IMG/VR virus record: IMGVR_UViG_3300020045_004362
Span: 1 to 31,479 of that record
Source: a virus
Taxonomy: Duplodnaviria > Caudoviricetes
Length of the DNA stretch: 31,479 bases
Strand: one strand, 5' to 3'
The notes under the pieces: model-generated
Told to the model about the DNA's origin: nothing
The model's database searches: none
Seen by the model: the letters and a program-made list of their open reading frames with translations, nothing else
Shown: positions 2,482-22,696 of the stretch, one piece after another
Layout: each line of letters begins with the position of its first letter
How positions within the stretch are numbered: position 1 is the stretch's first letter
Translations under genes and position numbers: made by a program

Positions 2482-4182
2482 ATGACAACCGTACCTTTTG
2501 ATGACACTGCCGACGATTGGGCTGCGCGCCGTCAAGGTGAAGTATATGGCAATGCCCGAATTCGCGCGACCTATGCCGAACTGGCCGCTGAAACCGGCTG
2601 GTCAAATAATGAAAACGGCATGGTTACGGCTGCGGATACTGAAACTCATGCCAGTGTAACTGGAGACATTGGCGAAAGCGGCGGGCAGACACCTAACAGC
2701 GGATATTACGTCTACTCCACTTCATTGACCGCACTTGTGCGCGTTGGTGCGCTTGAAAGCGTGGCTTCGCAGGCTAGTGCGACTGCGGCAGACGCAAGCG
2801 CATCCTTCGCTGAAGAATTCAGCGGCCCCGCGTATGCAAACCAAGCGGCAGGCGAAGCAGCTACCACCGCAGGCCAGTTCTTCCGCGTCTGGAACGGCGA
2901 CACTCCGCGCACATATACCAGGTACGAGCGGACGGCGGGGGGGTCTGCTATTGCTGTACCTTTGGCGACAAGCGCGTCTGTCAATGCCTTGATGCAAAAG
3001 GCATACATCGACTTTACAACCAAGCCTGATGGCACTCCACCCAGTGTGCTTGACACCGGCCAACCTGTATATTTTCACCAGAATGTTACGGGGCGTGAGC
3101 CGCAAATACTAAGCGGGCGCTTGGTGGTCAAAAACCCGCCTGCTTCTGGTGGTCTGGCTGACTACTATCAGGCTGATATTGCGTTACCTCTGGTCCGTAT
3201 CGGGGCCGAGTGGACGCAACCCACAGGGGTTGATGACGGCAATGGCAACATAACGATTGCGGCATGGGACGCTGAGTATCAGGCGAACTTAGGTCTTAAC
3301 GTGCCAAGATCATGGTGCCACCTGTCGATTGTGCCGACCACCGATGGAACGGGTCGTGCCATTTGGTTTGTATGTAACGGCACGGGTAACCTGTTTTCCA
3401 TCAAAGAGCAGGCATTTACCAACCCTGCCGCTGACGGAAAAACCCGCTGGCAGTGCGAAGCCTACTTGGATGTTAACGGCGGCAAGGGGTATGCTTGGCT
3501 TCCTGATGGCTCTGTGATGACTGTCACAGACGCAAATATCGCAACGGCATGCGCCGCGTTGGGAATCGCTACACTTACGTTCGCGGACTTGGAATCTAAG
3601 TTCCTCATGTGCGAGCATTTCGCCACGACTGGGGCGAACACTGCCAAATTTGGTGGATTTACAGCAATGTGGGGGGAGGCAAACTCCACATTAGCTACCA
3701 GTTACAAGAGCCAAGCACCAACTGCATTTGACGTAACTCGCCGGTCGGCTGCTTTAGCTGACAGAATTTCTGCTCCGCCTGTGGCTCAATCATACGCGCC
3801 AACAACTGCGATGTCTGTCGCTACCACTAATGCAGCGGCTAACGTGGACGCCACCAACGCCAAGGTTGATTTCACCGCTGGGGCAACCGGGCGGGCCGTG
3901 GTTGACGTGTCTGTTTATTACGAATGGTCTGCCACTGATGTAGTGTTCTGGAAGCTCGTAGGCACAGGTATAAGCACTCCAACGCGGGTGGCGGACGTAG
4001 GGTTGTCTGGCCAAAAGCGAGTGGCTCGGCAAATGATCGTCATCACCGGACTTGTCCCCGGCCAGCCCTATTCTGCCGCGTTGCAACATTGGAGCGTCAC
4101 AGCCGGTTCAGCCACAGCCAAGGCCGGTGGTTCTGGTGCTGGAATGCTGCCGCCGCTTACAATCACTGCTATGCCCGCATGA
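2482..4182 (+). CDS. Second receptor-binding protein / tail fibre
   Basis: 566 aa, Ala/Thr/Gly-rich; YANQAAGEAATTAGQFFRV tail-fibre-like motif; GAGGTG SD; located in the tail module. Confidence 0.7.
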   Translation: MTTVPFDDTADDWAARRQGEVYGNARIRATYAELAAETGWSNNENGMVTAADTETHASVTGDIGESGGQTPNSGYYVYSTSLTALVRVGALESVASQASATAADASASFAEEFSGPAYANQAAGEAATTAGQFFRVWNGDTPRTYTRYERTAGGSAIAVPLATSASVNALMQKAYIDFTTKPDGTPPSVLDTGQPVYFHQNVTGREPQILSGRLVVKNPPASGGLADYYQADIALPLVRIGAEWTQPTGVDDGNGNITIAAWDAEYQANLGLNVPRSWCHLSIVPTTDGTGRAIWFVCNGTGNLFSIKEQAFTNPAADGKTRWQCEAYLDVNGGKGYAWLPDGSVMTVTDANIATACAALGIATLTFADLESKFLMCEHFATTGANTAKFGGFTAMWGEANSTLATSYKSQAPTAFDVTRRSAALADRISAPPVAQSYAPTTAMSVATTNAAANVDATNAKVDFTAGATGRAVVDVSVYYEWSATDVVFWKLVGTGISTPTRVADVGLSGQKRVARQMIVITGLVPGQPYSAALQHWSVTAGSATAKAGGSGAGMLPPLTITAMPA

Positions 4183-4892
4183 CCGACCTCGGCAACCGCC
4201 TCACCCTGCCCGCGCTGCAAGCTGACTGCGGAATCGGCGCGGGCACACCCGGCTTCGGTGAGGTGTTCGGCCCGCGCAGCCGTGCGGCACTCACCGCCAA
4301 ACTGTCCAACCCGCGCGCAGCGGCACTCACCGAAGCGGACTTCAAAGCCGCTGCGGATCGTCTCGGCGTCCCGGTGGGGCACATCAAGGGTGTGCGCAAG
4401 GTAGAAGCACCTCGCGGCCCGTTCGACACAGACGGCAAGCCTTCGATCCTTTACGAGCGCCACAAATTCCGCAACCACACCGTGCCGCCCGGTCGCTTCG
4501 ACCACACCAATTCGGCGTTGTCCGGTGGGTCTTATGGGCGCGGTGGTTACGGGGCCTACAGCGCGCAGTATGGTAAACTGTTCGACGCCATCGCCCTCGA
4601 TCCGCACGCGGCGTTCAACGCTTGCTCGTGGGGCGCGTTTCAGGTGATGGGTGAACATGCCGAAACGCTCGGCTACGTCAACAGCTACGGTATGGCAAAG
4701 TCGCTGGTGACGGGTGAAGCGGCACACCTCGAAACATTCGTCCGCTATGTCGAAGTGTTCAAACTCGTGGATGAACTTCGGGCGTGCCGTCCGGGCGATC
4801 CCGCATCGTGCGTTCCGTTCGTCAAGGGGTATAATGGCAAGGGGTACGCGACCTTCAAATACGATGCCAAATTCGCCGCCGCAATATCATAG
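4179..4892 (+). CDS. Endolysin, N-acetylmuramidase (DUF3380 / Muramidase family)
   Basis: ATGA overlap with the upstream gene; motifs KVEA, ILYERHKF, SWGAFQVMG, YNGxGY. Confidence 0.9.
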   Translation: MTDLGNRLTLPALQADCGIGAGTPGFGEVFGPRSRAALTAKLSNPRAAALTEADFKAAADRLGVPVGHIKGVRKVEAPRGPFDTDGKPSILYERHKFRNHTVPPGRFDHTNSALSGGSYGRGGYGAYSAQYGKLFDAIALDPHAAFNACSWGAFQVMGEHAETLGYVNSYGMAKSLVTGEAAHLETFVRYVEVFKLVDELRACRPGDPASCVPFVKGYNGKGYATFKYDAKFAAAIS

Positions 4893-6339: not shown

Positions 6340-8373
6340 CTATGCGATGATGAGTTTTCGCGCTTCTGCTATGTAGTATTCATAATTTACATTGTCAAAC
6401 CGGAACGTCGCTGCATCGTTGCATTCCGCTACTTTCCAACCCGCTTCGATCCCAGTGCGCCTGTCCTCATATACGGACTTGTTGCCGGTGCAAACGTCAG
6501 CGTTCCACTGCCAGCCGCATTGTTCCATCGTGGCGTCATACATCGCCTGCGTTACGCCGTTCTTACGCTTGAACGCTCCGATACGCGCGCCAGCGGGTGG
6601 TGGGCTGATCTTCGTCAACGATCCACCCTGCATCGCGACATAGTAGCGACTGGTAGACTGTATCTGCTGGTCGTCAAGCATGAGACGGCTGCTGCGATCT
6701 ACCTTGGCGCGGCACATGAAGTCAAACGGATCGGTATGCGTCCGTATGAACTGCTCAGGTGGGATACCGTGTACCATTGCGGCAACTGCGGCGCGCACGC
6801 TCACGACGTTACCTAAATCCTTGTGCCATGCTGGCGGCTGACACTCTGCAATACTCTGCGTGTAATTCAGCGGATCGGGATGCCACAAGCGCCCCTTTTG
6901 CTTCACGTTACCGTCCGTATCAATCGCTACATACGTGTTCACGTCAGAGATGAACATGCGGTCGTACTTCACATCTTCAAGCACGAGACGCGAGAAGTCC
7001 TGCCACTCACGTTCGATCTGTTGCGCTTGCGGCAAATGCTGCTCGTGTATGAAGTACGAGATGCCGTCCGTGTTGACCTGCACAATCGAGAGCGTTGGGA
7101 CGGTTGCGAGACGTTCCGCCAACATACACAGCAACAGTTGTCCGTTGATGGTAATCGTCATAGTGAACTGCGAGTCGTACAGCACGCTAAACTTGCTGTT
7201 AGACTTTCCGTATGCACCGTTCGCGGCAAGTTTGATGCTGTTCGCTTCGACGCACTTCTTACCCTTCTTCGCCTGCCACTCTTTACGCTCGGCAGGGAGT
7301 GAGGCGTATGCGGCGGTGAATGCTTCGCCAAGGTGTGCCGGTGCCAGATTGTTGACGATGGCGATGGACGGGTAAAGGCTCGCAACGTCAATGTCGCGGA
7401 TGATCCACCTGTTGCCCGACTGAAACCGTTTGCTCGAAACCGATGCGTGGACGCCACCTGTGCCGAACTCGAACGACACGCCGCCGACGTTCGCGCTCAG
7501 ACCCTTGAACACACCCTTGGTCTTGATGTCGGCGTCCGGGTCTTCCAGATCGTCCGGTGTGAGGACTTGCTCTTGCAGGTACGCCAGCACGCGCTGAAAC
7601 TCTGGATTGTCAAACCGCACATACGGGAAAATAATGTCGCGCAGTGCGATGCTGCGGCGGATCGTCTGGCGTTTCTGCCGTCGCCCGTTAGCGTCTCGGG
7701 TGTAGCACACGTCATCACCGAGACGCTTTTCCAGCATCTTCTCGCCAATTTTCGTGTCATTATAATTCAACACGTCCATGCCGAATTGTTCGACTAGACC
7801 GATGCGAAAATCCAGCGCGCTCATGCTGTATTTAGCAAAGCGCTTCGTCTCTTTCACGTCATGGACATTGTAAGGAATTACATCGCCGACAATCTGTTCC
7901 AGCGTCAAATACGTACCAAACGGGACGCGGCTCTCAAGAACGGTGCGAGAGCGCATGTTGATTTGCAGCGCTTTGAGGCTGGTCGTCTTGGCGCGGTTGT
8001 CGAAGTGGTGCAGCGTGTATAGGTCCACCTGCGGGACAAGTCTGTCGCGCTCCCATATCGTGCCACCAAAGCGATCCTGCGAGGCAAATATGGAGTTGTT
8101 GAACTCGTACAGTTGCTCGACCGTCACGTTCGGATTTTGCAACAGGTAGTGCAGCATCCGGTAGTCGTAACCGAGATTGTTAAACCCGATCATCGGCGTG
8201 CCGGTGCTGCGCAACCAGTCGATCCACGCAAACAATTCACGCCGGTCGTCCCGATGGTGACTAATTTCCCATGTGCTGCACTGTTCCGTGTTCATCGGTT
8301 CGGCGGACAGGAGAAAGCAATTCGGGAATTGCTCTATGTCATAGACCGGCGCGTTAGCGAGCGAGAGTGTCAT
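6340..8373 (-). CDS. DNA polymerase, family B, with 3'-5' exonuclease domain
   Basis: Exonuclease motifs YDIE, GFNNLGYD, YNVHDV; polymerase motifs DIDVASLYPS, KLAANGAYG, NTDG. Confidence 0.93.
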   Translation of the reverse strand: MTLSLANAPVYDIEQFPNCFLLSAEPMNTEQCSTWEISHHRDDRRELFAWIDWLRSTGTPMIGFNNLGYDYRMLHYLLQNPNVTVEQLYEFNNSIFASQDRFGGTIWERDRLVPQVDLYTLHHFDNRAKTTSLKALQINMRSRTVLESRVPFGTYLTLEQIVGDVIPYNVHDVKETKRFAKYSMSALDFRIGLVEQFGMDVLNYNDTKIGEKMLEKRLGDDVCYTRDANGRRQKRQTIRRSIALRDIIFPYVRFDNPEFQRVLAYLQEQVLTPDDLEDPDADIKTKGVFKGLSANVGGVSFEFGTGGVHASVSSKRFQSGNRWIIRDIDVASLYPSIAIVNNLAPAHLGEAFTAAYASLPAERKEWQAKKGKKCVEANSIKLAANGAYGKSNSKFSVLYDSQFTMTITINGQLLLCMLAERLATVPTLSIVQVNTDGISYFIHEQHLPQAQQIEREWQDFSRLVLEDVKYDRMFISDVNTYVAIDTDGNVKQKGRLWHPDPLNYTQSIAECQPPAWHKDLGNVVSVRAAVAAMVHGIPPEQFIRTHTDPFDFMCRAKVDRSSRLMLDDQQIQSTSRYYVAMQGGSLTKISPPPAGARIGAFKRKNGVTQAMYDATMEQCGWQWNADVCTGNKSVYEDRRTGIEAGWKVAECNDAATFRFDNVNYEYYIAEARKLIIA

Positions 8374-8633: not shown

Positions 8634-8681
8634 CGTCGTCTCCTCAGTATCGAACACAATCGTTAAGTGTCGCGTCGTAGT

Positions 8682-8720
8682 TGCAGTGCGGCCAAGCACA
8701 GGGCCTTACGCCGCACTGCA
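8682..8720 (-). other. 11-bp stem-loop downstream of the SSB-like gene (mRNA stabiliser or attenuator)
   Basis: TGCAGTGCGGC (8682-8692) pairs with GCCGCACTGCA (8710-8720); no U-tract. Confidence 0.4.
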
Positions 8721-8729
8721 TTGCTGCGA

Positions 8730-9653
8730 TCACCGGGGTGGCATAAAACCCGGCATCTGTCCCGGCTGCATCGGTGCTGCGGCGGGTGCCATCCCCATGC
8801 CCGGCATACCCTGCGGAGCCGCACCGGGTGCCTGCATCGGCACACCGGGTTGCACGAAGTCATAGGCGGGCTGGACGGGTGCCTGCATCGGTGCCGCCTG
8901 AGGAGCGTACTGAGGTTGAACGGGCGCTGCGGGTGCCTGCATCGGTGCTTGCTGGTACACAGGTGCCGCCTGAGGAGCGTACTGCGGCTGCATCGGTGCT
9001 GCTGCGGGCATACCCATCCCCGGCATACCCATAGCCGCTGCACCGCCGACAGGTGTTGCGCTCGCGCCGGGTGGCAACTGGTGCTGACGGCCGCCGAACA
9101 GCGCCGCAGGGTCCGCACCGCCGCGCGATACGATGTGCGCGCCGTAGCCGATCAGTTCGACAGCCTTGGGATTGATGTACAGACCGGGCTTGTTGGGCGA
9201 CTTCTGGTTGTTGTACGCAACCTCGATCCCGACCGCCACATAGTCCCCGCACTTGAGCGCATCAGCGGCAAGCTGGTTGTACTTCGTACCGTCAAACTGG
9301 TACAGCGGTACACTGTCAACTTCGGTGCTGACCGTCAGGACGATGTTACCGGCATACCCTTCGCGCGCGGCATAAGGCTGACCGTTTGCGTCGATTCCAT
9401 CACCGTCCACGTACTTGTAGGCGAACGTCGGCGGCACGCTGTTGTTGAACGCCTGCGCTGCAACGTTGTAAAGCGACGGCCACACCGACGCCTGAAACTC
9501 TGCCTTGGGGATCGCAATACCGAAGCTGATCTGCTTGCGCGGATTGCCCAACTTGTCCATCTTCGGCTGCTTGTTGTCGTCAAGGACGGGGTTTGGAATG
9601 AGCGGCTTCTGACCCCATACCACGCGGCCAACTGGTGTCGTAAGTTCAACCAT
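8730..9653 (-). CDS. Single-stranded DNA-binding-like protein (DUF2815-like) with a Pro/Gln/Ala/Met-rich repetitive tail
   Basis: TPVGRVVWG, YKYVDGD, CGDYVAV, PGLYINP, ELIGYG motifs; sits between polB and the DUF2800 nuclease. Confidence 0.7.
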   Translation of the reverse strand: MVELTTPVGRVVWGQKPLIPNPVLDDNKQPKMDKLGNPRKQISFGIAIPKAEFQASVWPSLYNVAAQAFNNSVPPTFAYKYVDGDGIDANGQPYAAREGYAGNIVLTVSTEVDSVPLYQFDGTKYNQLAADALKCGDYVAVGIEVAYNNQKSPNKPGLYINPKAVELIGYGAHIVSRGGADPAALFGGRQHQLPPGASATPVGGAAAMGMPGMGMPAAAPMQPQYAPQAAPVYQQAPMQAPAAPVQPQYAPQAAPMQAPVQPAYDFVQPGVPMQAPGAAPQGMPGMGMAPAAAPMQPGQMPGFMPPR

Positions 9654-9655
9654 TT

Positions 9656-9895
9656 TTAAGATGCTCCCATTTGTGCGGCGGTGATATTACCGCAAGCAAG
9701 TTGTTCTCTGCCGTAAGACGGCTTTGCGACACAAAGCGCAAGTTGCAGATCGCGGATATGCCAGCCCGTCATGTGCTGATAATACGCGATGGTGTTTGCA
9801 GGATGTGGGCAGGGCGTCGCATTGTCGCGCGCAACCCTACCTTGCTTCAACCAACTCTCAAGTTGGTCCACCACCTGCGGTTCGCTAAGTGTCAT
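9656..9895 (-). CDS. Hypothetical protein with an Rmf/CrpP-like G..A....CP.......GW pattern
   Basis: QGRVARDNATPCPHPANTIAYYQHMTGW; tight spacing within the operon. Confidence 0.5.
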   Translation of the reverse strand: MTLSEPQVVDQLESWLKQGRVARDNATPCPHPANTIAYYQHMTGWHIRDLQLALCVAKPSYGREQLACGNITAAQMGAS

Positions 9896-9898
9896 CAG

Positions 9899-10966
9899 TT
9901 ACCCCTTTTTCAACAATTTACGCGCGCGAGCATCAGCGCTCACGCGAACCAGTTTCTTACCCGTCATAGGCCGCTCGGTGATCAGCTTGATCACGTCAGG
10001 GGATGCACCGCGCCGCTCAAGTTCTGCGGGTGTAACGAGTTTTTCCTCAGTGCAGGATATGCCTGTAAGCGCCCTGATCGCTGCACCGTCGAACACCTTG
10101 TTAAACCGGCGCTGCCCAAGCGGTGCGTCCACCGTGTATTCAGGGATTACCGCACCGCTGGCAATCTTGTGCATCGCCAATTCCTGCAACGCCTTGAGAC
10201 GCGCCGTGATAACGTCCGACGCCTGCCCTAGCTGGTCCAACTCTGCGGACAGCACTTCGGGCGGCAAGTCATCGTTAAACGCCACAGTCGCTACGTCAAT
10301 CGCGTTCATCGACGCTTCGCGATATGCAGGGCAAATGTAGATCGCGTGGCAATTGACGCACTGTGGCCCGGTTTGCAGTGTAGTGTCATCTTCACGGGAC
10401 AATCTGGCGTCAATGCGATGATACAGCGCCGTGAGGTCCGCGTAACTGATACGCCATTCACGCAAATGACCTTCCGGGTGATACCGGCGCGGTTGGTGGA
10501 TGCGCAACACTATCTCGTCTGGTGCGATACCGTGCAGCACGCAATACCCGATAGCGTGCGCTATGAGCGTCCAGTTCATTTCAGGCGATACGAGACGGTG
10601 CCCGTATTTGAAATCGTCCACGGTGAGGATGTTGTTACGATACCCAACATGATCGGCGCGGGCGTTGACGATCCAGCGTTCGGTTTGCACCGTGGTAACG
10701 CTTTCCATTTCGCCACAATCCAGCGCGCTAATGTAGTCGCTGACGTGGCGCACCATATCGTTGTCGATCACCACACCGTTGTAGGCGCGCGTCCCGGCAA
10801 GTTCGGACATGCTCGCACCGCCAAAGACTTTCTGCGCGAGCCAGTGTGCAGCGTTACCCTCGTCGCGCGTCGTCTGGTCACTCTCGACCGTAACAGTCGT
10901 CGGCATATTGCGCGATCCGAAGCACTGCATCAGGCGCGGGAGGTGTGTGGCGTCCGTTATGAACAT
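9899..10966 (-). CDS. DUF2800 / Cas4-like PD-(D/E)XK exonuclease
   Basis: EGNAAH, ARAD...DDFKYG, IHQPR, and a C-terminal CxxC...CP cluster. Confidence 0.8.
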   Translation of the reverse strand: MFITDATHLPRLMQCFGSRNMPTTVTVESDQTTRDEGNAAHWLAQKVFGGASMSELAGTRAYNGVVIDNDMVRHVSDYISALDCGEMESVTTVQTERWIVNARADHVGYRNNILTVDDFKYGHRLVSPEMNWTLIAHAIGYCVLHGIAPDEIVLRIHQPRRYHPEGHLREWRISYADLTALYHRIDARLSREDDTTLQTGPQCVNCHAIYICPAYREASMNAIDVATVAFNDDLPPEVLSAELDQLGQASDVITARLKALQELAMHKIASGAVIPEYTVDAPLGQRRFNKVFDGAAIRALTGISCTEEKLVTPAELERRGASPDVIKLITERPMTGKKLVRVSADARARKLLKKG

Positions 10967-13089: not shown

Positions 13090-13508
13090 CGCCACAGCAC
13101 TGTCGCGTGAAGCACGCACCAGACGACGGCACATATGGCGACTGCCTGCGCGCCTGCATCGCTTCGTTGCTCGATCTGCCACCGGAACATGTACCGCATT
13201 TCGCGCATGACGGAGCCGACGCCGACACCGTGACGGACAGGTTGCGCGATTGGCTGGCACAGATCGGGGTTGGTCCGTGGTGGTCGCACTTTGACGGCGA
13301 GGAGCCGATGGACGTGGTGCTGGATACGATGGGTGCGAACAACCCCGGCGTCCACTACCTGTTGTTCGGCTGCACGGCGGGTGATGAACCGCATGTGGTG
13401 ATCTGCCGGGACGCTGCGGTCGTCTGGAATCCGGCGTGGTATGGCGGCTCTCTCGTGCGTGCCGGTGTGCATGGTGCATGGTCTGTTATGGTGTTGGCGC
13501 GGGTATGA
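13086..13508 (+). CDS. Hypothetical protein, possible papain-like (C39-like) fold
   Basis: GDCLRACIASLL, HVVI, WNP; GTGA and ATGA overlaps at its ends. Confidence 0.55.
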   Translation: MTPQHCRVKHAPDDGTYGDCLRACIASLLDLPPEHVPHFAHDGADADTVTDRLRDWLAQIGVGPWWSHFDGEEPMDVVLDTMGANNPGVHYLLFGCTAGDEPHVVICRDAAVVWNPAWYGGSLVRAGVHGAWSVMVLARV

Positions 13509-16078
13509 TCTCTCTCAGACCGGATCAAGCGGACGTTAAGCAACGTGTGTATCGCTCATGGGCTAACGGCAATCGCGTCGTCCTTGCCGTCAAACCCACC
13601 GGCGCGGGCAAGTCGATTTTGCTCAGTGACATCATCCTCGACGCGCATAACGTCGGTGCGTGGCAAATCGTCGCTGCACATCGCAACGAACTCGTCACGC
13701 AAATGTCAATGCACATCGCACGTCGCGGCATTAAGCATCGCGTCATCGGTTCCGCTTCGACAGTAAGCGAAGCAACCGCCATGCACCGCGAGGAGTTTAA
13801 CGGTCGTTCATTCGTCAATCCCGATGCTAATACGGCGGTTGCTTCAACTCAAACGCTGCTCGCCCGCGCCGCTAAGATTGCTCCGTGGGCTGCACAGGTC
13901 AATCGCTTCTATGGAGATGAGTTCCATCATTATTTACGACAAAATTCTTTTGGTAAAAGCGTTGAATTGTTCCCGAATGCACAAGTGCTTGGCGTCACAG
14001 CAACTCCGCAACGTGCGGACGGCTTCGGGCTTGGTGCAGACTATGACGGCATAGTTGACGATATGGTGGTCGGTATCTCCATGCGAGAACTGATCAACCT
14101 TGGCGCACTGTCCGACTATGAAATTGCCATACCGGAGAGCGACTTTGAGATAGACGACGCGACCCTTGCGCCGTCTGGCGACTGGTCCACTGCGCGGATG
14201 CGGGAAGCGTCGAAGAAATCGCACATCGTTGGTGACGTGGTTCGCGAATATGCGCGTCGTGCGCTCGGTAAGAAATTCATCTGTTTTGCCACGGACGTTG
14301 AAACCGCTACCGAAATGTCAAACAACTTTACCGCTGCTGGTATCCCTAGCGCAGCGGTAAGCGCTAAAACACCTGCTGCGACCCGTAACGAAATGCTCCG
14401 TCGTTTCAAGCGCGGTCAATTGCTCGGTCTGGTCAATGTTGATCTGTTCGGAGAGGGCTTCGATTGCCCTGCCGTTGAAGTCGTCATTATGGCGCGCCCT
14501 ACCGCCAGTCTCGCCGTCTATCTTCAACAGTTCGGACGGGGAATGCGATCCTTTAACGGCAAAGACTGTGTGGCTCGCGGAAGTCTCATCTTGACGCAAC
14601 GTGGTCTGGTGTCTATCGAAGAACTTACTCGTTCCCACAAGGTTTGGGACGGGGAGAACTTTGTAGAACACGGCGGCGCAATCTGCCGAGGGGTCAGAAA
14701 GGTTATCGAGTATGCTGGACTCATCGCAACTCCCGACCATGAAGTCTGGACGGCGAAAGGTTGGCGCACCTTTGGGTACTGTGCCGCCAAACAAATCCCC
14801 ATCTCACAGACCGGATTTGGTCGGATTGCAGTTCGGGAGCGTGATAATTTCTTCACCGAACATGATCTGGAAAGGGACGAAACCGAAACGAATGTATGTC
14901 GAGACGAAATGTCTGATGTGCCGTCGGGAGAATTTGGTCATGTATACCAATCTGACCGGAGGTCGAACGAAAGGTTGTCGTGCTTGCAATCAGCCGATCA
15001 GATTTCCGCGATGGTTCTACGCTCGTGTTCAAACACAAGAGCAGCGCTGCAACAACCCGCTCAATGGATCGTATCACAAATATGGCGGGCGTGGGATTCG
15101 CTTCAACTTTACTTCGGTCACAGAGGGAGCGCTCTGGATTCGGGACAATCTCGGAGTAAGCGAGCATCATCGACATCTGGAGTTGGACCGCATCGAAAAC
15201 GACGGGCATTACGAGCCGGGAAATATTCGCTGGTCAACACCTTCGCAGAACTATTCGCACACTCGCAAAAAGAGGGTAGCTGTAGCGGTGAACAAATTTC
15301 GACTGGAACATCCAGACATTCGGTACGCGGACGCAACGCTGAAAGGGATGTTTTCGCGCGACATGACACCGGCGGAAATCATAGAGCGATACCACCAGAA
15401 GTCCTGCAAACCGAAAGGGAAGTATGGGACATACTCGACTGCGGACCTCTTTCTCGTTTCACTGCACAAGGACTCCTAGTCCATAATTGCGGACTCGTTA
15501 TTGATCACGTCTCAAACTATAAACGCCACGGCTTCCCGGACAAGGCGCACGCATGGTCCCTCGCGCGGCGGGAGAAGCGCAGCAGCAAGAAAGAGAAAGA
15601 CCCTGAGGAAATCGACCTCACCGCGTGCCGGGAGTGCAGCCGCCCATACGAAGCGTGTCTACCAGCTTGCCCATACTGCGGGGCCGTCCTGCCGCTCCCC
15701 GATCCGACAAGCCGCAAACCCGAAACGGTTGACGGCGATCTGGTGTTGCTCACCCGCGAGATGATTGCCGCTATGCAGGCCGCTGCGGTGCTGGAAAGCC
15801 CTGCCGCGATGCACGACCGCGTTTCACACGCAGCGGGGCCACTTGCCGGTAAGGGCGCGTTGAACCGCCAGACCGAGAAGATTCAGGCGCAGGAGAGACT
15901 GCGGGAAGCCATTGCGCTGTGGGCAGGTATCCAGCGCCAGCGCGGGCGGTCGGACAGCGAGAGTTACCGGCGCTTCTACCTCTCAACGGGTGTGGACGTG
16001 TTGAGCGCTATGGCACTTGACGACCGTGCAGCATATGAGACGATGGCGGCGCGTGTGGAGGAATGGTGCAATGTCTGA
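13505..16078 (+). CDS. Superfamily 2 DNA helicase precursor containing an intein (857 aa; about 550 aa after splicing)
   Basis: LRPDQ, PTGAGKS, DEFHH, TATP, LFGEGFDCP, RPTASL, QQFGRGMR; C-terminal CRECS...CPYCG zinc finger; ATG 13505 overlaps the upstream stop. Confidence 0.92.
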   Translation: MISLRPDQADVKQRVYRSWANGNRVVLAVKPTGAGKSILLSDIILDAHNVGAWQIVAAHRNELVTQMSMHIARRGIKHRVIGSASTVSEATAMHREEFNGRSFVNPDANTAVASTQTLLARAAKIAPWAAQVNRFYGDEFHHYLRQNSFGKSVELFPNAQVLGVTATPQRADGFGLGADYDGIVDDMVVGISMRELINLGALSDYEIAIPESDFEIDDATLAPSGDWSTARMREASKKSHIVGDVVREYARRALGKKFICFATDVETATEMSNNFTAAGIPSAAVSAKTPAATRNEMLRRFKRGQLLGLVNVDLFGEGFDCPAVEVVIMARPTASLAVYLQQFGRGMRSFNGKDCVARGSLILTQRGLVSIEELTRSHKVWDGENFVEHGGAICRGVRKVIEYAGLIATPDHEVWTAKGWRTFGYCAAKQIPISQTGFGRIAVRERDNFFTEHDLERDETETNVCRDEMSDVPSGEFGHVYQSDRRSNERLSCLQSADQISAMVLRSCSNTRAALQQPAQWIVSQIWRAWDSLQLYFGHRGSALDSGQSRSKRASSTSGVGPHRKRRALRAGKYSLVNTFAELFAHSQKEGSCSGEQISTGTSRHSVRGRNAERDVFARHDTGGNHRAIPPEVLQTEREVWDILDCGPLSRFTAQGLLVHNCGLVIDHVSNYKRHGFPDKAHAWSLARREKRSSKKEKDPEEIDLTACRECSRPYEACLPACPYCGAVLPLPDPTSRKPETVDGDLVLLTREMIAAMQAAAVLESPAAMHDRVSHAAGPLAGKGALNRQTEKIQAQERLREAIALWAGIQRQRGRSDSESYRRFYLSTGVDVLSAMALDDRAAYETMAARVEEWCNV
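14567..15487 (+). mobile_element. Intein (307 aa) inserted just after helicase motif VI
   Basis: Block A CVARGSLILTQRG, block B LIATPDHEVWT, blocks F/G EVWDILDCGPLSRFTAQGLLVHN, followed by Cys+1; removal restores GRGMRSFNGKD-CGLVIDHVSN. Confidence 0.92.
14712..15479 (+). CDS. HNH-type (His-Me finger) homing endonuclease encoded in the +1 frame inside the intein
   Basis: DLVGLQFG, CLMC, GCRAC, RCNNP...YHKYGGRGI, LDRIENDGHYEPGNIRWSTPSQN; SD GAAAGGT (14697-14703) 8 nt before the ATG. Confidence 0.85.
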   Translation: MLDSSQLPTMKSGRRKVGAPLGTVPPNKSPSHRPDLVGLQFGSVIISSPNMIWKGTKPKRMYVETKCLMCRRENLVMYTNLTGGRTKGCRACNQPIRFPRWFYARVQTQEQRCNNPLNGSYHKYGGRGIRFNFTSVTEGALWIRDNLGVSEHHRHLELDRIENDGHYEPGNIRWSTPSQNYSHTRKKRVAVAVNKFRLEHPDIRYADATLKGMFSRDMTPAEIIERYHQKSCKPKGKYGTYSTADLFLVSLHKDS

Positions 16079-19190: not shown

Positions 19191-19367
19191 ATGAAACCGT
19201 TACTCAACGGCAAGCAAACCGCTGAACGTCTTTGCATCACCGATAAGACACTGCGCACATGGCTGCGCCAAGGCACCTGCCCCGTCGCACCGATCCCCGG
19301 AATGAAGCCCGCCAAGTGGCGCGCGGCGGACGTGGACGCATGGATTGCCGGGGGCGCTGCACAGTGA
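19191..19367 (+). CDS. Excisionase/AlpA-like HTH DNA-binding protein (58 aa)
   Basis: MKPLLNGKQTAERLCITDKTLRTWLRQGTCP...KWRAADVDAWI; translated by hand; GTGA overlap with the primase. Confidence 0.75.
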   Translation: MKPLLNGKQTAERLCITDKTLRTWLRQGTCPVAPIPGMKPAKWRAADVDAWIAGGAAQ

Positions 19368-21667
19368 CACAAGACTTTACAAGTGCCGCAGCGTTCGTCG
19401 GTGCGCTCGGTGGCGACATCATGGAGTGGCGCTGCATCCATGATCAGAACCTCGCAATCCCGGCAATCCCGATCCGTGGCACCCTGCAAGAATGCTGGCC
19501 GTCCCTCGTCTCGTACAACGCGCAAGGCTACGGCATATTCGCCACACCTGCCGCGATGGACGGCGTGGGGCGCAAGCTGGAAAACGTCTCGTATCTGCGG
19601 GCGCATTACGTCGATCTGGACGAAGCGGACGCCACGCAGCAATACGAGCGCGCCAGTGCATCGTATCCGGCACCGGGCTTCGCGGTCCAGTCGTCCCCCG
19701 GTAAATTTCACGTCTATTGGCCCGTCGCACCGTACACCGGCAACGACCGCTTCGAGTTAACACAGCGCAAACTGCGCCAGATGTTCAACGGCGACAAGAC
19801 GATCATCGACCCTACCCGCGTCATGCGTGTGCCGGGGTTCTACCACTGCAAGGGTGAGCCGCACCTCGTCAAATGTTGGGCGCTGGCAGGCTACGGGCAA
19901 CCCCTCACGGTCGAGACGCTTGAAGCGGCTCTGGTGCATGTCAACGTCATTGACGGCGGCGTGGGGCAGCGTCACGAGTTGGGCGATCCAGACCTTGCTG
20001 CACCGTCCGTCGAGTGGCTCAAGCGCGCTATGGACCTCACCGACCCGAACAGTCTGGATCGTGGCGAGTGGATCGCGCATACCGCCGCGTTCAAGCAGGC
20101 CGGTTGGACGCTACTCGATCCCGATGCGCTTTTCTCGCTGTGGAACGAATGGTGCCTGCGTTACGAGCATAACGACGCGGGCGAAAACCATAAGCAGTGG
20201 CACAGCATCCGCAACAGCGAATTGGGTTGGAAGTCGCTGGTGAAGCGCGTCCCGTCGTTGCAGGCTATCGTGTCATTCGGCGCGCGTGAGGCGTCCGTGG
20301 CGGCACAGAGCGCGCCAGAGGGTGCGCCAGTACCCGACATGCCCGGCCCGCCTCCCATCGACTGCTCAGGCGAGTTCCTGACACACATGGAACAGCAGGA
20401 GTGGTTCAAAGACTGCACCTACGTTCTCAACATCGGGCTGGTGATGGGGCCGAAGGGCGTCTTTATGAACCAGTCGCAATTCAACGTCGAATATGGCGGC
20501 AAGCAGTTCATCATCAACAGCGCCGGTAAGACCAGCACCGAAGCGTGGGCAGCGGCAACGCGCTCGACGCTCTGGACGATCCCCAAGGTCCACCACATCC
20601 GCTTCCGTCCCGATCTACCGTATGGGGCGCGCGTGAAGGACGACCGCAGACGAGAAGGTGTCAACGTGTACGATCCCGCAGATGTGCCGCGCGTGGCAGG
20701 CGACGTATCGCCGTTCCTGAATCACATCGCAGCCTTGCTACCGGACGCCAACGACCAGAAAGTGCTGCTCGATTATCTGGCGCATAACTTCAAGTTCCCC
20801 GGTTATAAAATTCCGTGGGCACCCGTCATTCAATCCACGGAAGGCGCGGGGAAAGGCGTCCTCAAGAAAGTCATATCGCACTGCTTGGGCGCGTCATATG
20901 TGTATTTCCCGAACGCCAAAGAACTGACCAACAGCGGGTCACAATTCAACGGTTGGATGCGAAACAAACTGTTCATTCTTGCCGATGAAATCAAGGTGGA
21001 CGACCGACGCGACCTCATCGAAGTTCTCAAGCCAATGATTTCTGAGGACCGCATTGAAATCCAGTCCAAGGGCGTCGATCAGGTGCTTGAAGACAACTTC
21101 TCAAACTGGTGTTTTTTCACCAACTACAAGGACGCTGTTCCGATCAGCAAGAATGGGCGTCGTTTCGCCATATTCTTCTCACCATTGCAGCGTACCGAAG
21201 ATATGCTCGAACGCGGTATGAATCCTGCGTACTTCACGGCGCTGTACGATTGGCTCGCCAATGGCGGCAATGCGATCATCGCTGACTGGTTTATGAACTA
21301 CCCTATCGAGCGCGGCGGTATTCCGATGCGTGCGCCGGTCACGACAAGCTGGCAAGAGGCTGTCGTGGTGTCGCGCTCGCCTATCGAGCGTGTCGTGCAC
21401 GAGGCGCTTGAGGACGGTCTGGACGGCTTCAAGGGCGGGTGGATCAGCAGCCTCGCGGTGATCAAGCGGTGCCGGGAGACAGGCTCGCTACAGCGCGTCC
21501 CGTCGTTGCAGATCGTGGCGCAGTGCCTCGAAGGTATGGGCTACGTCAACTGCGGGCGCGCGAACAGGGCTTACATCGCAGAGGACGTGCAGGTGCGCCC
21601 GACGCTGTTTTATTTTGGGACGGTTGCCGATCCTGCGGGATATGGTCGCGCACAGGGGTATGAATGA
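19364..21667 (+). CDS. Primase-helicase (RepB-like primase, PriCT-2, DUF5906/D5-like NTPase)
   Basis: YVDLD, SSPGKFHVYW, DPTRVMRVPGFYH, RGEWI...W, EGAGKG Walker A, ILADE, RRFAIF. Confidence 0.88.
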   Translation: MTQDFTSAAAFVGALGGDIMEWRCIHDQNLAIPAIPIRGTLQECWPSLVSYNAQGYGIFATPAAMDGVGRKLENVSYLRAHYVDLDEADATQQYERASASYPAPGFAVQSSPGKFHVYWPVAPYTGNDRFELTQRKLRQMFNGDKTIIDPTRVMRVPGFYHCKGEPHLVKCWALAGYGQPLTVETLEAALVHVNVIDGGVGQRHELGDPDLAAPSVEWLKRAMDLTDPNSLDRGEWIAHTAAFKQAGWTLLDPDALFSLWNEWCLRYEHNDAGENHKQWHSIRNSELGWKSLVKRVPSLQAIVSFGAREASVAAQSAPEGAPVPDMPGPPPIDCSGEFLTHMEQQEWFKDCTYVLNIGLVMGPKGVFMNQSQFNVEYGGKQFIINSAGKTSTEAWAAATRSTLWTIPKVHHIRFRPDLPYGARVKDDRRREGVNVYDPADVPRVAGDVSPFLNHIAALLPDANDQKVLLDYLAHNFKFPGYKIPWAPVIQSTEGAGKGVLKKVISHCLGASYVYFPNAKELTNSGSQFNGWMRNKLFILADEIKVDDRRDLIEVLKPMISEDRIEIQSKGVDQVLEDNFSNWCFFTNYKDAVPISKNGRRFAIFFSPLQRTEDMLERGMNPAYFTALYDWLANGGNAIIADWFMNYPIERGGIPMRAPVTTSWQEAVVVSRSPIERVVHEALEDGLDGFKGGWISSLAVIKRCRETGSLQRVPSLQIVAQCLEGMGYVNCGRANRAYIAEDVQVRPTLFYFGTVADPAGYGRAQGYE

Positions 21668-21996
21668 TGCACACTTGCCCATCCTGCGGGTTTGACCTGC
21701 AATCCGAGAGTGAGATAACGCTGGGTCGCTGGCGCATCGTGCCGCGCGATGCCGCATACTATGACGGTGTGCCGGTCGTTACGCGCGCTACATGGTTGAA
21801 CATCATGCTCAGTCTGGCGCGGGAGAACGGCAGAGCGTTACGCGCTGAAACGCTGCTTAACCGTGTATCCGATAGCGACGATACCAACATCATCGCCGTC
21901 CATTTGAGCCGCATCAAAAAGTCGTTACGCGCGCTCGGTATCGAGACGCCGATCAAGGTACGCTACTGTACGGGGTATTACTGGCGTGTGGATTGA
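21664..21996 (+). CDS. Winged-helix (OmpR/PhoB effector-like) protein with N-terminal CxxC
   Basis: CPSCG; LLNRV...NIIAVHLSRIKKSL...GY. Confidence 0.7.
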   Translation: MMHTCPSCGFDLQSESEITLGRWRIVPRDAAYYDGVPVVTRATWLNIMLSLARENGRALRAETLLNRVSDSDDTNIIAVHLSRIKKSLRALGIETPIKVRYCTGYYWRVD

Positions 21997-22696
21997 CCCA
22001 ACAGGTTACGGCACGGTGCATCTCGGAGACGCCGTTGCGCTGCTCGCTTCTATGCCAGATGAATCGGTCGATCTGGTCGTTACCGATCCGCCGTATCGTG
22101 TCATCAGCGGTGGTAACAACAGCCCTGCATCAACGGCAAATTACGGTTGGAAATCCAGCGTCCTAGCGGCAAACGACGGGCGCATATTTTCCAGCAACGC
22201 GCTGCGATTTAACGACTATCTACCACACCTCTATCGTGTGCTGAAACCCGGATCGCACTGTTACGTCATGGTGAATAATCTAAACCTGCGCGAACTGCTC
22301 AATGTAGCGGACAGCGTAGGTTTCGGTTTCCACAATCTGTTGCGGTGGGACAAGAACACGGTCAACGCTAATCGTTGGTACATGAAAGACTGCGAATACA
22401 CCGGGTTCTTCTACAAGAAGCCCGCCAAGTCCATCAACTTCCCCGGCTCGAAACAGGGTTACGCCTGCAAGACCCTGCGCGGTACGGACAAGGTGCATCC
22501 GACGCAAAAGCCGTTGGACTTGATGCGCCACTATATCGAGAACAGCAGTCAACCGGGCGATCTGGTCCTAGACCCGTTCGCAGGATCGGGCGCAACAGCT
22601 CTTGCAGCGCGTGGCGCGGGCCGACGCTATGTGACGTGCGAGGTGGACATGCAGTGGTACGTGGCGACCGTTGCGGCGCTGTGCCAGCGGGTGTGA
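21986..22696 (+). CDS. Orphan DNA methyltransferase (N6-adenine/N4-cytosine, beta class)
   Basis: VTDPPY, HPTQKP, LDPFAGSG in beta-class order; no cognate restriction endonuclease nearby. Confidence 0.92.
   Translation: MWIDPTGYGTVHLGDAVALLASMPDESVDLVVTDPPYRVISGGNNSPASTANYGWKSSVLAANDGRIFSSNALRFNDYLPHLYRVLKPGSHCYVMVNNLNLRELLNVADSVGFGFHNLLRWDKNTVNANRWYMKDCEYTGFFYKKPAKSINFPGSKQGYACKTLRGTDKVHPTQKPLDLMRHYIENSSQPGDLVLDPFAGSGATALAARGAGRRYVTCEVDMQWYVATVAALCQRV

Follow-up and report, generated by a model that had tools for sequence, protein, structure and literature searches.

A helicase intein of a phage genome with a probable HNH-superfamily homing nuclease in the +1 reading frame

Inteins whose endonuclease gene lies in a reading frame other than their own have been reported before. 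According to the accessible text of one report, every annotated brucellaphage genome has an intein-encoded HNH gene within its terminase gene, in another reading frame (PMC4422536, Virol J 2015). Gosselin, Arsenault and Gogarten, in the part of their preprint available to us, describe antisense and frame-3 nucleases in actinobacteriophage inteins and point to Gorbalenya 1998 for earlier cases (bioRxiv 10.1101/2025.01.02.630785), and Phillips, DeSimone and Gogarten give ratios of nonsynonymous to synonymous substitution rates (dN/dS) per frame for a cyanobacterial dnaX intein (bioRxiv 10.64898/2026.09.14.751524). Hidden HNH genes without a splicing domain (Arsenault et al., 2025; PMC11855218, as excerpted) and fractured genes with split inteins (Dassa et al., 2009; PMC2677866, as excerpted) are related arrangements. 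Here we consider a 307-amino-acid intein at positions 14567 to 15487 of virus record IMGVR_UViG_3300020045_004362 (Duplodnaviria; Caudoviricetes), a linear record of 31 479 nt with an estimated completeness of 57% that was analysed whole and is called the window below. We conclude that this is probably a selfish helicase intein whose +1 frame encodes a likely HNH-superfamily homing nuclease, probably translated separately from an internal start. A sequence-only reading of the same DNA had proposed much the same and knew of no earlier description, and on the latter point it was mistaken: the basic architecture of an intein with an out-of-frame nuclease is already known, from an HNH case in 2015, an endonuclease-VII-like case in 2025 and the LAGLIDADG case of dnaX in 2026.

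The intein is contiguous, of class-1 type, and lies on the plus strand six residues past motif VI of the helicase, at a site where homologous helicases lack it. It begins with Cys1 and ends with His306-Asn307, followed by a Cys in the extein, and the helicase frame is free of stops throughout 14400–15700. Its N-terminal splicing region (14567–14866) carries block B as T55-P-D-H58 (14729–14740) and its C-terminal splicing region (15404–15487) carries Asp288 of block F, His306 and Asn307; blocks B and F are invariant in 60 aligned members of the family to which the intein belongs, where C1, T55, H58, D288 and N307 do not vary. Cys1 is present in 163 of 163 family representatives, Cys being part of the rule by which boundaries were set. 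The splicing motifs recognized by the sequence-only reading are thus intact, and its observation that the middle shows no recognizable LAGLIDADG or HNH motif was borne out, since neither Pfam nor PHROG scans find a nuclease or any other known domain in this stop-free passenger peptide (14867–15397). Profile searches for the splicing (Hint) domain itself return only weak matches: a sub-threshold match to TIGR01445 in the N-terminal region (E 0.008), no Pfam match in the intein frame or in the +1 frame, and, for a profile built from 60 family members, weak matches to solved RecA, DnaE and DnaX inteins (best E 0.003). Because the intein-frame matches are weak, both products are overlooked by standard annotation.

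The +1 frame over the same DNA has stops only at 14592, 14664 and 15477 and is open from 14667 to 15476; from the ATG at 14712 it encodes a protein of 255 amino acids (open reading frame [ORF] 14712–15479, plus strand). This protein matches four PHROG families, three of them annotated as HNH endonucleases (E 5e-20 to 1e-9, the best being phrog_374) and one as a restriction endonuclease, with weak support at the level of fold. It shows a Cys4 zinc site (C67, C70, C89 and C92), an RC..YGxRGI block, a core formed by D159-R160-Y167-N171-N180 and a helical C-terminal part. The motifs from which the sequence-only reading had assigned it to the HNH (His-Me finger) nucleases are all present and the family assignment stands, but the catalytic position does not conform, with Asp-Arg where HNH enzymes have Asp-His. 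The ORF crosses the C-terminal splicing region, and in 83 of the 163 representatives its stop lies 8 nt before the intein end. The tail of the ORF (15404–15479) is doubly constrained, yet disordered in the predicted model.

That both frames should be open over this length is not expected by chance. With 42 sites at risk, recoding the +1 protein synonymously from codon 85 of the intein onward would be expected to put 10.6 stops into the intein frame; there are none, and the probability of a stop-free intein frame is about 10^-5.6. Selection was compared between frames in 34 disjoint gap-free pairs of relatives, 68–97% identical and chosen from 588 candidates, with the window outside the sample. 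For the middle region dN/dS is 0.12 when the DNA is read in +1, which is the purifying selection that the sequence-only reading had proposed to test for, and 1.67 when it is read as intein; the intein-frame value above 1 is an expected side effect, because selection acts on +1. The relation is reversed in codons 1–45 (1.15 in +1 against 0.13 in the intein frame); the intein-frame ratio is 0.11–0.13 over codons 1–62, and from about codon 63 both frames are constrained, as seen in codons 63–84 and again in the final 28 codons. Similarly, the middle of the window intein is 60% and 54% identical to its two nearest relatives when read in +1, and 33% and 28% when read in the intein frame.

Among the matches listed (8 of 16 records), four short read contigs from one public run align to the intein without gaps at 93–99% identity, and a fifth, partial and divergent, has two offsetting gaps; the run is possibly not independent of the source of the window. 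Seven of the ten listed variants in the middle region are silent in +1, and nine of the ten alter the intein frame. Neither compensating indels nor scattered +1 stops, either of which the sequence-only reading had named as speaking against dual coding, were found: the four near-identical contigs are gap-free, and of 193 relatives three have a +1 stop in the core and at least one other has one close to the end. Taken together, the sequence comparisons show that both frames are kept open, that selection on the middle concerns the +1 protein alone and that both ends are doubly constrained. Two other assignments were rejected on these grounds. A canonical intein with an in-frame homing endonuclease fails on the empty middle, on its dN/dS of 1.67 and on the lack of such an arrangement in intact family members; the split (fractured-gene) form fails because one open frame spans the intein.

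The extent of the family was surveyed by searching viral, metagenome and genome contigs and named phages. The 363 matches to the N-terminal splicing region, less five without a C-terminal region, three incomplete ones and exact duplicates, left 278 distinct complete elements: 193 intact with an HNH gene in +1, which confirms that the dual coding is conserved, nine intact with an HNH gene in +2, 60 intact mini-inteins (minis, 106–181 amino acids) and 16 that are not open. No intact member among the 278 has an in-frame nuclease. The 16 comprise four elements split around a +1 HNH gene, five split around a GIY-YIG-type gene and seven that are damaged. Those of the searches that were seeded with nothing but 65 residues of the splicing domain, and that covered the best 80 of 88 and the best 80 of 246 loci, yielded 153 distinct complete elements. 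Of these, 34 are intact minis, six are broken and 113 are large and intact, and all 113 carry the +1 HNH gene.

When 172 flanks were sorted by rough pattern matching, PolA accounted for more than 100 at several sites, SF2 (superfamily 2) helicases for about 43 past motif VI and four at motif V, and DnaB-like proteins for four at Walker B; 20 were left unsorted. Named members include APSE-1, Streptococcus Javan, Gardnerella AB1 and Caulobacter GB2A, with a Salmonella Jerseyvirus and EBPR siphovirus 2 among those of the +2 type. The nucleases of the nine +2 members (e.g. L029:2001-2897 and L028:2001-2873) are mostly nearer to each other than to +1 nucleases. Six loci (L004, L005, L155, L218, L282 and L297) have at least two family inteins at different sites of one PolA gene. 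In the four HNH split forms, all in PolA (L089:1587-2593, L153:1927-2939, L171:1954-2954 and L218:1966-2987), the N-half closes with a stop, the +1 HNH gene overlaps both intein halves and the C-half resumes in +2. The five GIY-YIG forms (L073:917-2128, L083:917-2128, L298:429-1628, L307:437-1628 and L309:405-1628) occupy the PolA site of the split HNH forms, in Bacillota-type prophages, with a gene of about 300 amino acids that is of GIY-YIG type in the two that were scanned. Several minis (e.g. L337, L428 and L300) have N-terminal DNA nearly identical to that of full inteins and retain the codon-49 ATG with its Shine-Dalgarno sequence, which suggests recent deletion of the nuclease.

The excess of +1 over +2 members (193 against nine) may follow from the genetic code. 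Placing a nuclease in +1 creates no residue pair that forces a stop in the host frame in any of 163 proteins, whereas the same proteins placed in +2 force a mean of 1.46 stops and could be stop-free in only 23 of 163. We infer that +1 predominates because it forces no host-frame stops; shared ancestry contributes as well.

The chemistry of the +1 protein can be approached through the same representatives. The position after the metal-binding Asp is Arg160, not the catalytic His, in 161 of 163, which is not an I-HmuI-type site, while Tyr167 is conserved in 161, Asp159 in 159 and Asn180 in 135 (Gln in 22). The best fold match, again with weak support, is to the PacI-type His-Me finger nucleases. 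Tyr167, Asp159 and Asn180 may be the counterparts of the PacI active-site residues (the loop Tyr as general base, Asp and Asn as metal ligands), judging from the fold-matched range and from the residue numbering of PacI. By this analogy the +1 nuclease probably uses Tyr where His is usual. PacI itself, according to the accessible portions of two reports, is an active enzyme without the catalytic His and with Tyr as the base (PMC5714182, PMC4081073).

Among the 80 nearest helicase loci, 12 were unreadable by pattern and the remainder gave 62 distinct rows, three of them false matches; no intein was found in these rows. None of the 42 helicases that could be parsed has Cys, Ser or Thr at the +1 position (Tyr in 12, His in nine, others in the rest); in one unparsed row (L484) Thr was made out on inspection by eye. 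Both Rigallicvirus helicases, from the nearest named relatives of the window phage, and that of L436 have Phe or Tyr there. The family intein, missing from all nearest helicases that were read, is found in more distant ones, and the Asp|Cys junction of the window is that of its nearest intein relative (L034), which is housed in a more distant helicase. Co-conversion that probably brought in Cys+1 along with the intein is the simplest reading of these sequences, one that would fall if a clade with a native Cys had escaped sampling. The sequence-only reading had put forward the joined window flanks as a substrate for the nuclease, but they may not be its natural target, because the nearest empty alleles differ at both -1 and +1.

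These results are consistent with the following cycle. The 857-amino-acid precursor would excise the 307-amino-acid intein together with its passenger middle, as its intact class-1 residues predict, to leave a 550-amino-acid helicase. A zinc-binding nuclease of about 255 amino acids would come from ribosomes that start within the N-terminal splicing region, with the ATG at 14712 as the likeliest start codon. This enzyme, probably with the Tyr-for-His, PacI-like site, would cut or nick, close to the insertion site, those helicase genes of co-infecting phages that lack the intein, and repair would copy the element with some of its flank, bringing in the Cys+1 needed for splicing. A wider proposal, which we offer only tentatively and think somewhat less likely than its negation, is that the whole APSE-1-type family, for the most part unannotated (more than 200 distinct members in helicase, PolA and DnaB-like hosts) homes solely by such an out-of-frame, His-less PacI-type nuclease, that +1 is the sole frame always able to be stop-free, and that the import of Cys+1 by the cut lets the elements invade sites lacking Cys, Ser or Thr.

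Separate initiation is the most likely route to the +1 protein as judged from the family sequences. From about codon 48 onward the +1 frame is depleted of stops. Of 163 representatives, 69 have their best Shine-Dalgarno start at codon 49, where ATG 14712 lies, and the pairing energy at this codon is -10.4 against -7.1 in recoded sequence, with no such excess at two other ATG-prone positions. This commonest start position corresponds in the window to a likely ribosome binding site and ATG at 14698–14714 (plus strand); ATG 14739 and TTG 14772 are alternatives. Where a stop occurs at codons 59–62, a start recurs past it at codons 62–65 in 16 of 23 members, against 15 of 140 others. Several points tell against this route: the codon-49 signal persists in minis, the 23 members with the stop are related, selection on the +1 amino acid sequence begins only near codon 64, and the start signal of the window copy is weak. 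The last two could equally be claimed by programmed +1 ribosomal frameshifting in the N-terminal splicing region, which would fuse the nuclease to the N-part of the helicase; most members are without a conserved start codon near codons 63–65, where +1 selection sets in, and many have a purine-rich stretch at codons 63–64. We nevertheless think frameshifting unlikely, as the aligned DNA (about half of the 163 rows) holds no conserved slippery codon, many members have a strong Shine-Dalgarno sequence and ATG at initiation spacing (-13 kcal/mol in L026 and L137), start codons recur past blocking stops, and in split relatives a nuclease of this family is encoded by an ORF of its own. As a separate observation, Bacillota-type PolA members (e.g. 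L026, L148 and L315) share a recurrent GC-rich inverted repeat with a 5-bp stem and a 5-nt loop at intein codons of about 73–78; it stands just before a +1 ATG that is conserved at codon 86. It could be a translational control hairpin or a mere reflection of dual coding.

The separately initiated homing nuclease has further competitors in what the protein is for and whether it works. The protein might be an active nuclease maintained chiefly for its use in rivalry among co-infecting phages, or as an intein parasite, so that intein homing would be a by-product; related HNH genes do stand free in many phages (308 records), and splicing domains that occur as minis or split with a GIY-YIG gene mark the partners as separable. 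This seems to us quite improbable, given that 42 of the 45 best viral nuclease matches lie inside a family intein, with an N-terminal splicing region at two of the other three, that the closest nucleases occupy the same helicase region, and that nuclease and splicing-domain distances are correlated (Spearman 0.53, a value that kinship alone can produce). Loss of catalysis, which would make the window protein a DNA-binding relic or a recent pseudogene, draws on the Arg in place of the catalytic His and on the premature stops in at least four of 193 relatives. It is very improbable in view of a full-length ORF with every family-invariant residue, of variants in near-identical contigs that are mostly silent in +1, and of the activity of His-less PacI. 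As for an overlap created by sequencing or assembly, or an insert that is an RNA intron, the chance is in our judgement negligible. A one-base offset in damaged copy L217 does bring half of the nuclease into frame with the intein, but it breaks both products; the 193 independent intact copies of the family survey, the per-frame selection and the gap-free read contigs refute an artefact, while the window has no Rfam match at gathering score, and so no intron RNA family, and the minis mark the ends as those of a protein-splicing unit.

The host gene most likely starts at the ATG at 13505, which overlaps the stop codon of the preceding gene, and ends at 16078. Its N-extein (13505–14566, plus strand, 354 amino acids) is an SF2 DExH helicase with Walker A, DEFHH, TATP and motif VI, 58% and 54% identical to the helicases of Rhizobium phages RHph_X2_24 and P106B (Rigallicvirus), the nearest named relatives of the phage; the DNA polymerases are 62% and 60% identical. 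The C-extein (15488–16078, plus strand, 196 amino acids), whose first residue is Cys+1, is 51–54% identical to Rigallicvirus helicases; these, like the helicases of viral contigs, stay collinear through the insertion site, so that the insertion is clean. Elsewhere, between 489 and 22696, the window encodes a tailspike-like protein (489–2231), a muramidase (4089–4892), a family B polymerase (6340–8373, minus strand), a single-stranded DNA-binding protein (8730–9653, minus), a DUF2800 exonuclease (9899–10966, minus), a primase (19259–21667) and an N6/N4 methylase (21986–22696). Long antisense ORFs over the tailspike-like gene (612–1595, minus, 327 amino acids) and over the single-stranded DNA-binding protein gene (8667–9659, plus, 330 amino acids; no match in Pfam) are probably shadow frames.

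We found no account of the nested nuclease of this family or of a helicase host, though subscription papers, InBase and preprint supplements could hold one. Nor did mainly open literature yield an APSE-1-type family with this layout as the rule across helicase, PolA and DnaB-like sites, or a description for such inteins of a His-less PacI-like site, a codon reason for +1 or nearest empty alleles without Cys+1. Since gene callers and Pfam miss the family in both frames, surveys of inteins probably give too low a count of mobile inteins and of overlapping genes in phages. Because the family includes mini-inteins, contiguous elements of the +1 and +2 types and split elements with either of two nuclease types, the proposed route of nuclease entry can be tested on one tree. 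The window intein, with about 770 nt that code in two frames and a probable tyrosine-based homing nuclease, appears from its sequence to be a natural example of dual coding.

Judged by its sequence, the window intein fits the published class of inteins with out-of-frame endonucleases, with a contiguous stop-free frame, a nuclease ORF in another frame, purifying selection in the nuclease frame and relaxation in the host frame. One member was in effect already on record, the APSE-1 DNA polymerase P45 intein with nested ORF P46 (GenBank AF157835.1; L024:2431-2853), which is annotated without function and differs in its PolA host and distant nuclease subgroup. The brucellaphage terminase intein likewise contains, in another frame, a gene for a putative HNH homing endonuclease; compared by description only, it differs in its terminase host and, in the accessible text, is an annotation-level mention without selection analysis (PMC4422536). 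The actinobacteriophage inteins, so far as the available part of the preprint goes, share a contiguous intein, an unstructured in-frame middle, a nuclease ORF in another frame and an origin model in which a free-standing nuclease gene invades an intein, but their nucleases are antisense LAGLIDADG, antisense Vsr-like and frame-3 endonuclease VII-like, the HNH cases are in frame and the non-canonical cases there have no helicase host (bioRxiv 10.1101/2025.01.02.630785). That preprint is one of two recent ones to call the layout rare, whereas in the large family of the window it is the rule. The cyanobacterial dnaX intein shares overlapping frames in one gene, frame-dependent dN/dS, a putative Shine-Dalgarno sequence and coexisting mini-inteins, but has a LAGLIDADG enzyme at one site of one chromosomal gene, as against HNH-family enzymes at many sites in three host proteins (bioRxiv 10.64898/2026.09.14.751524).

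More distant are the methylase insertions of phages ShiLan and Pacc40, where, in the excerpted text, a hidden HNH gene is out of frame and the host frame open, without a splicing domain (PMC11855218); the Pacc40 nuclease is a distant relative (29%) of the window nuclease. Fractured genes, as the excerpted report presents them, have the nuclease gene between splicing halves with overlapping frames, a form taken by nine family relatives, while the window intein is contiguous (PMC2677866). With the PacI-type enzymes (group 20 in the accessible part of PMC5714182) the window protein shares the lack of His, a probably equivalent, invariant loop Tyr after Asp, the RC helix and a zinc site; PacI is a dimeric restriction enzyme of 142 amino acids, to which layout the window protein adds an N-terminal zinc ribbon and C-terminal helices. 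What the present family adds to these known systems is its scale, its hosts, a probable PacI-type chemistry, a frame preference and the probable import of Cys+1.
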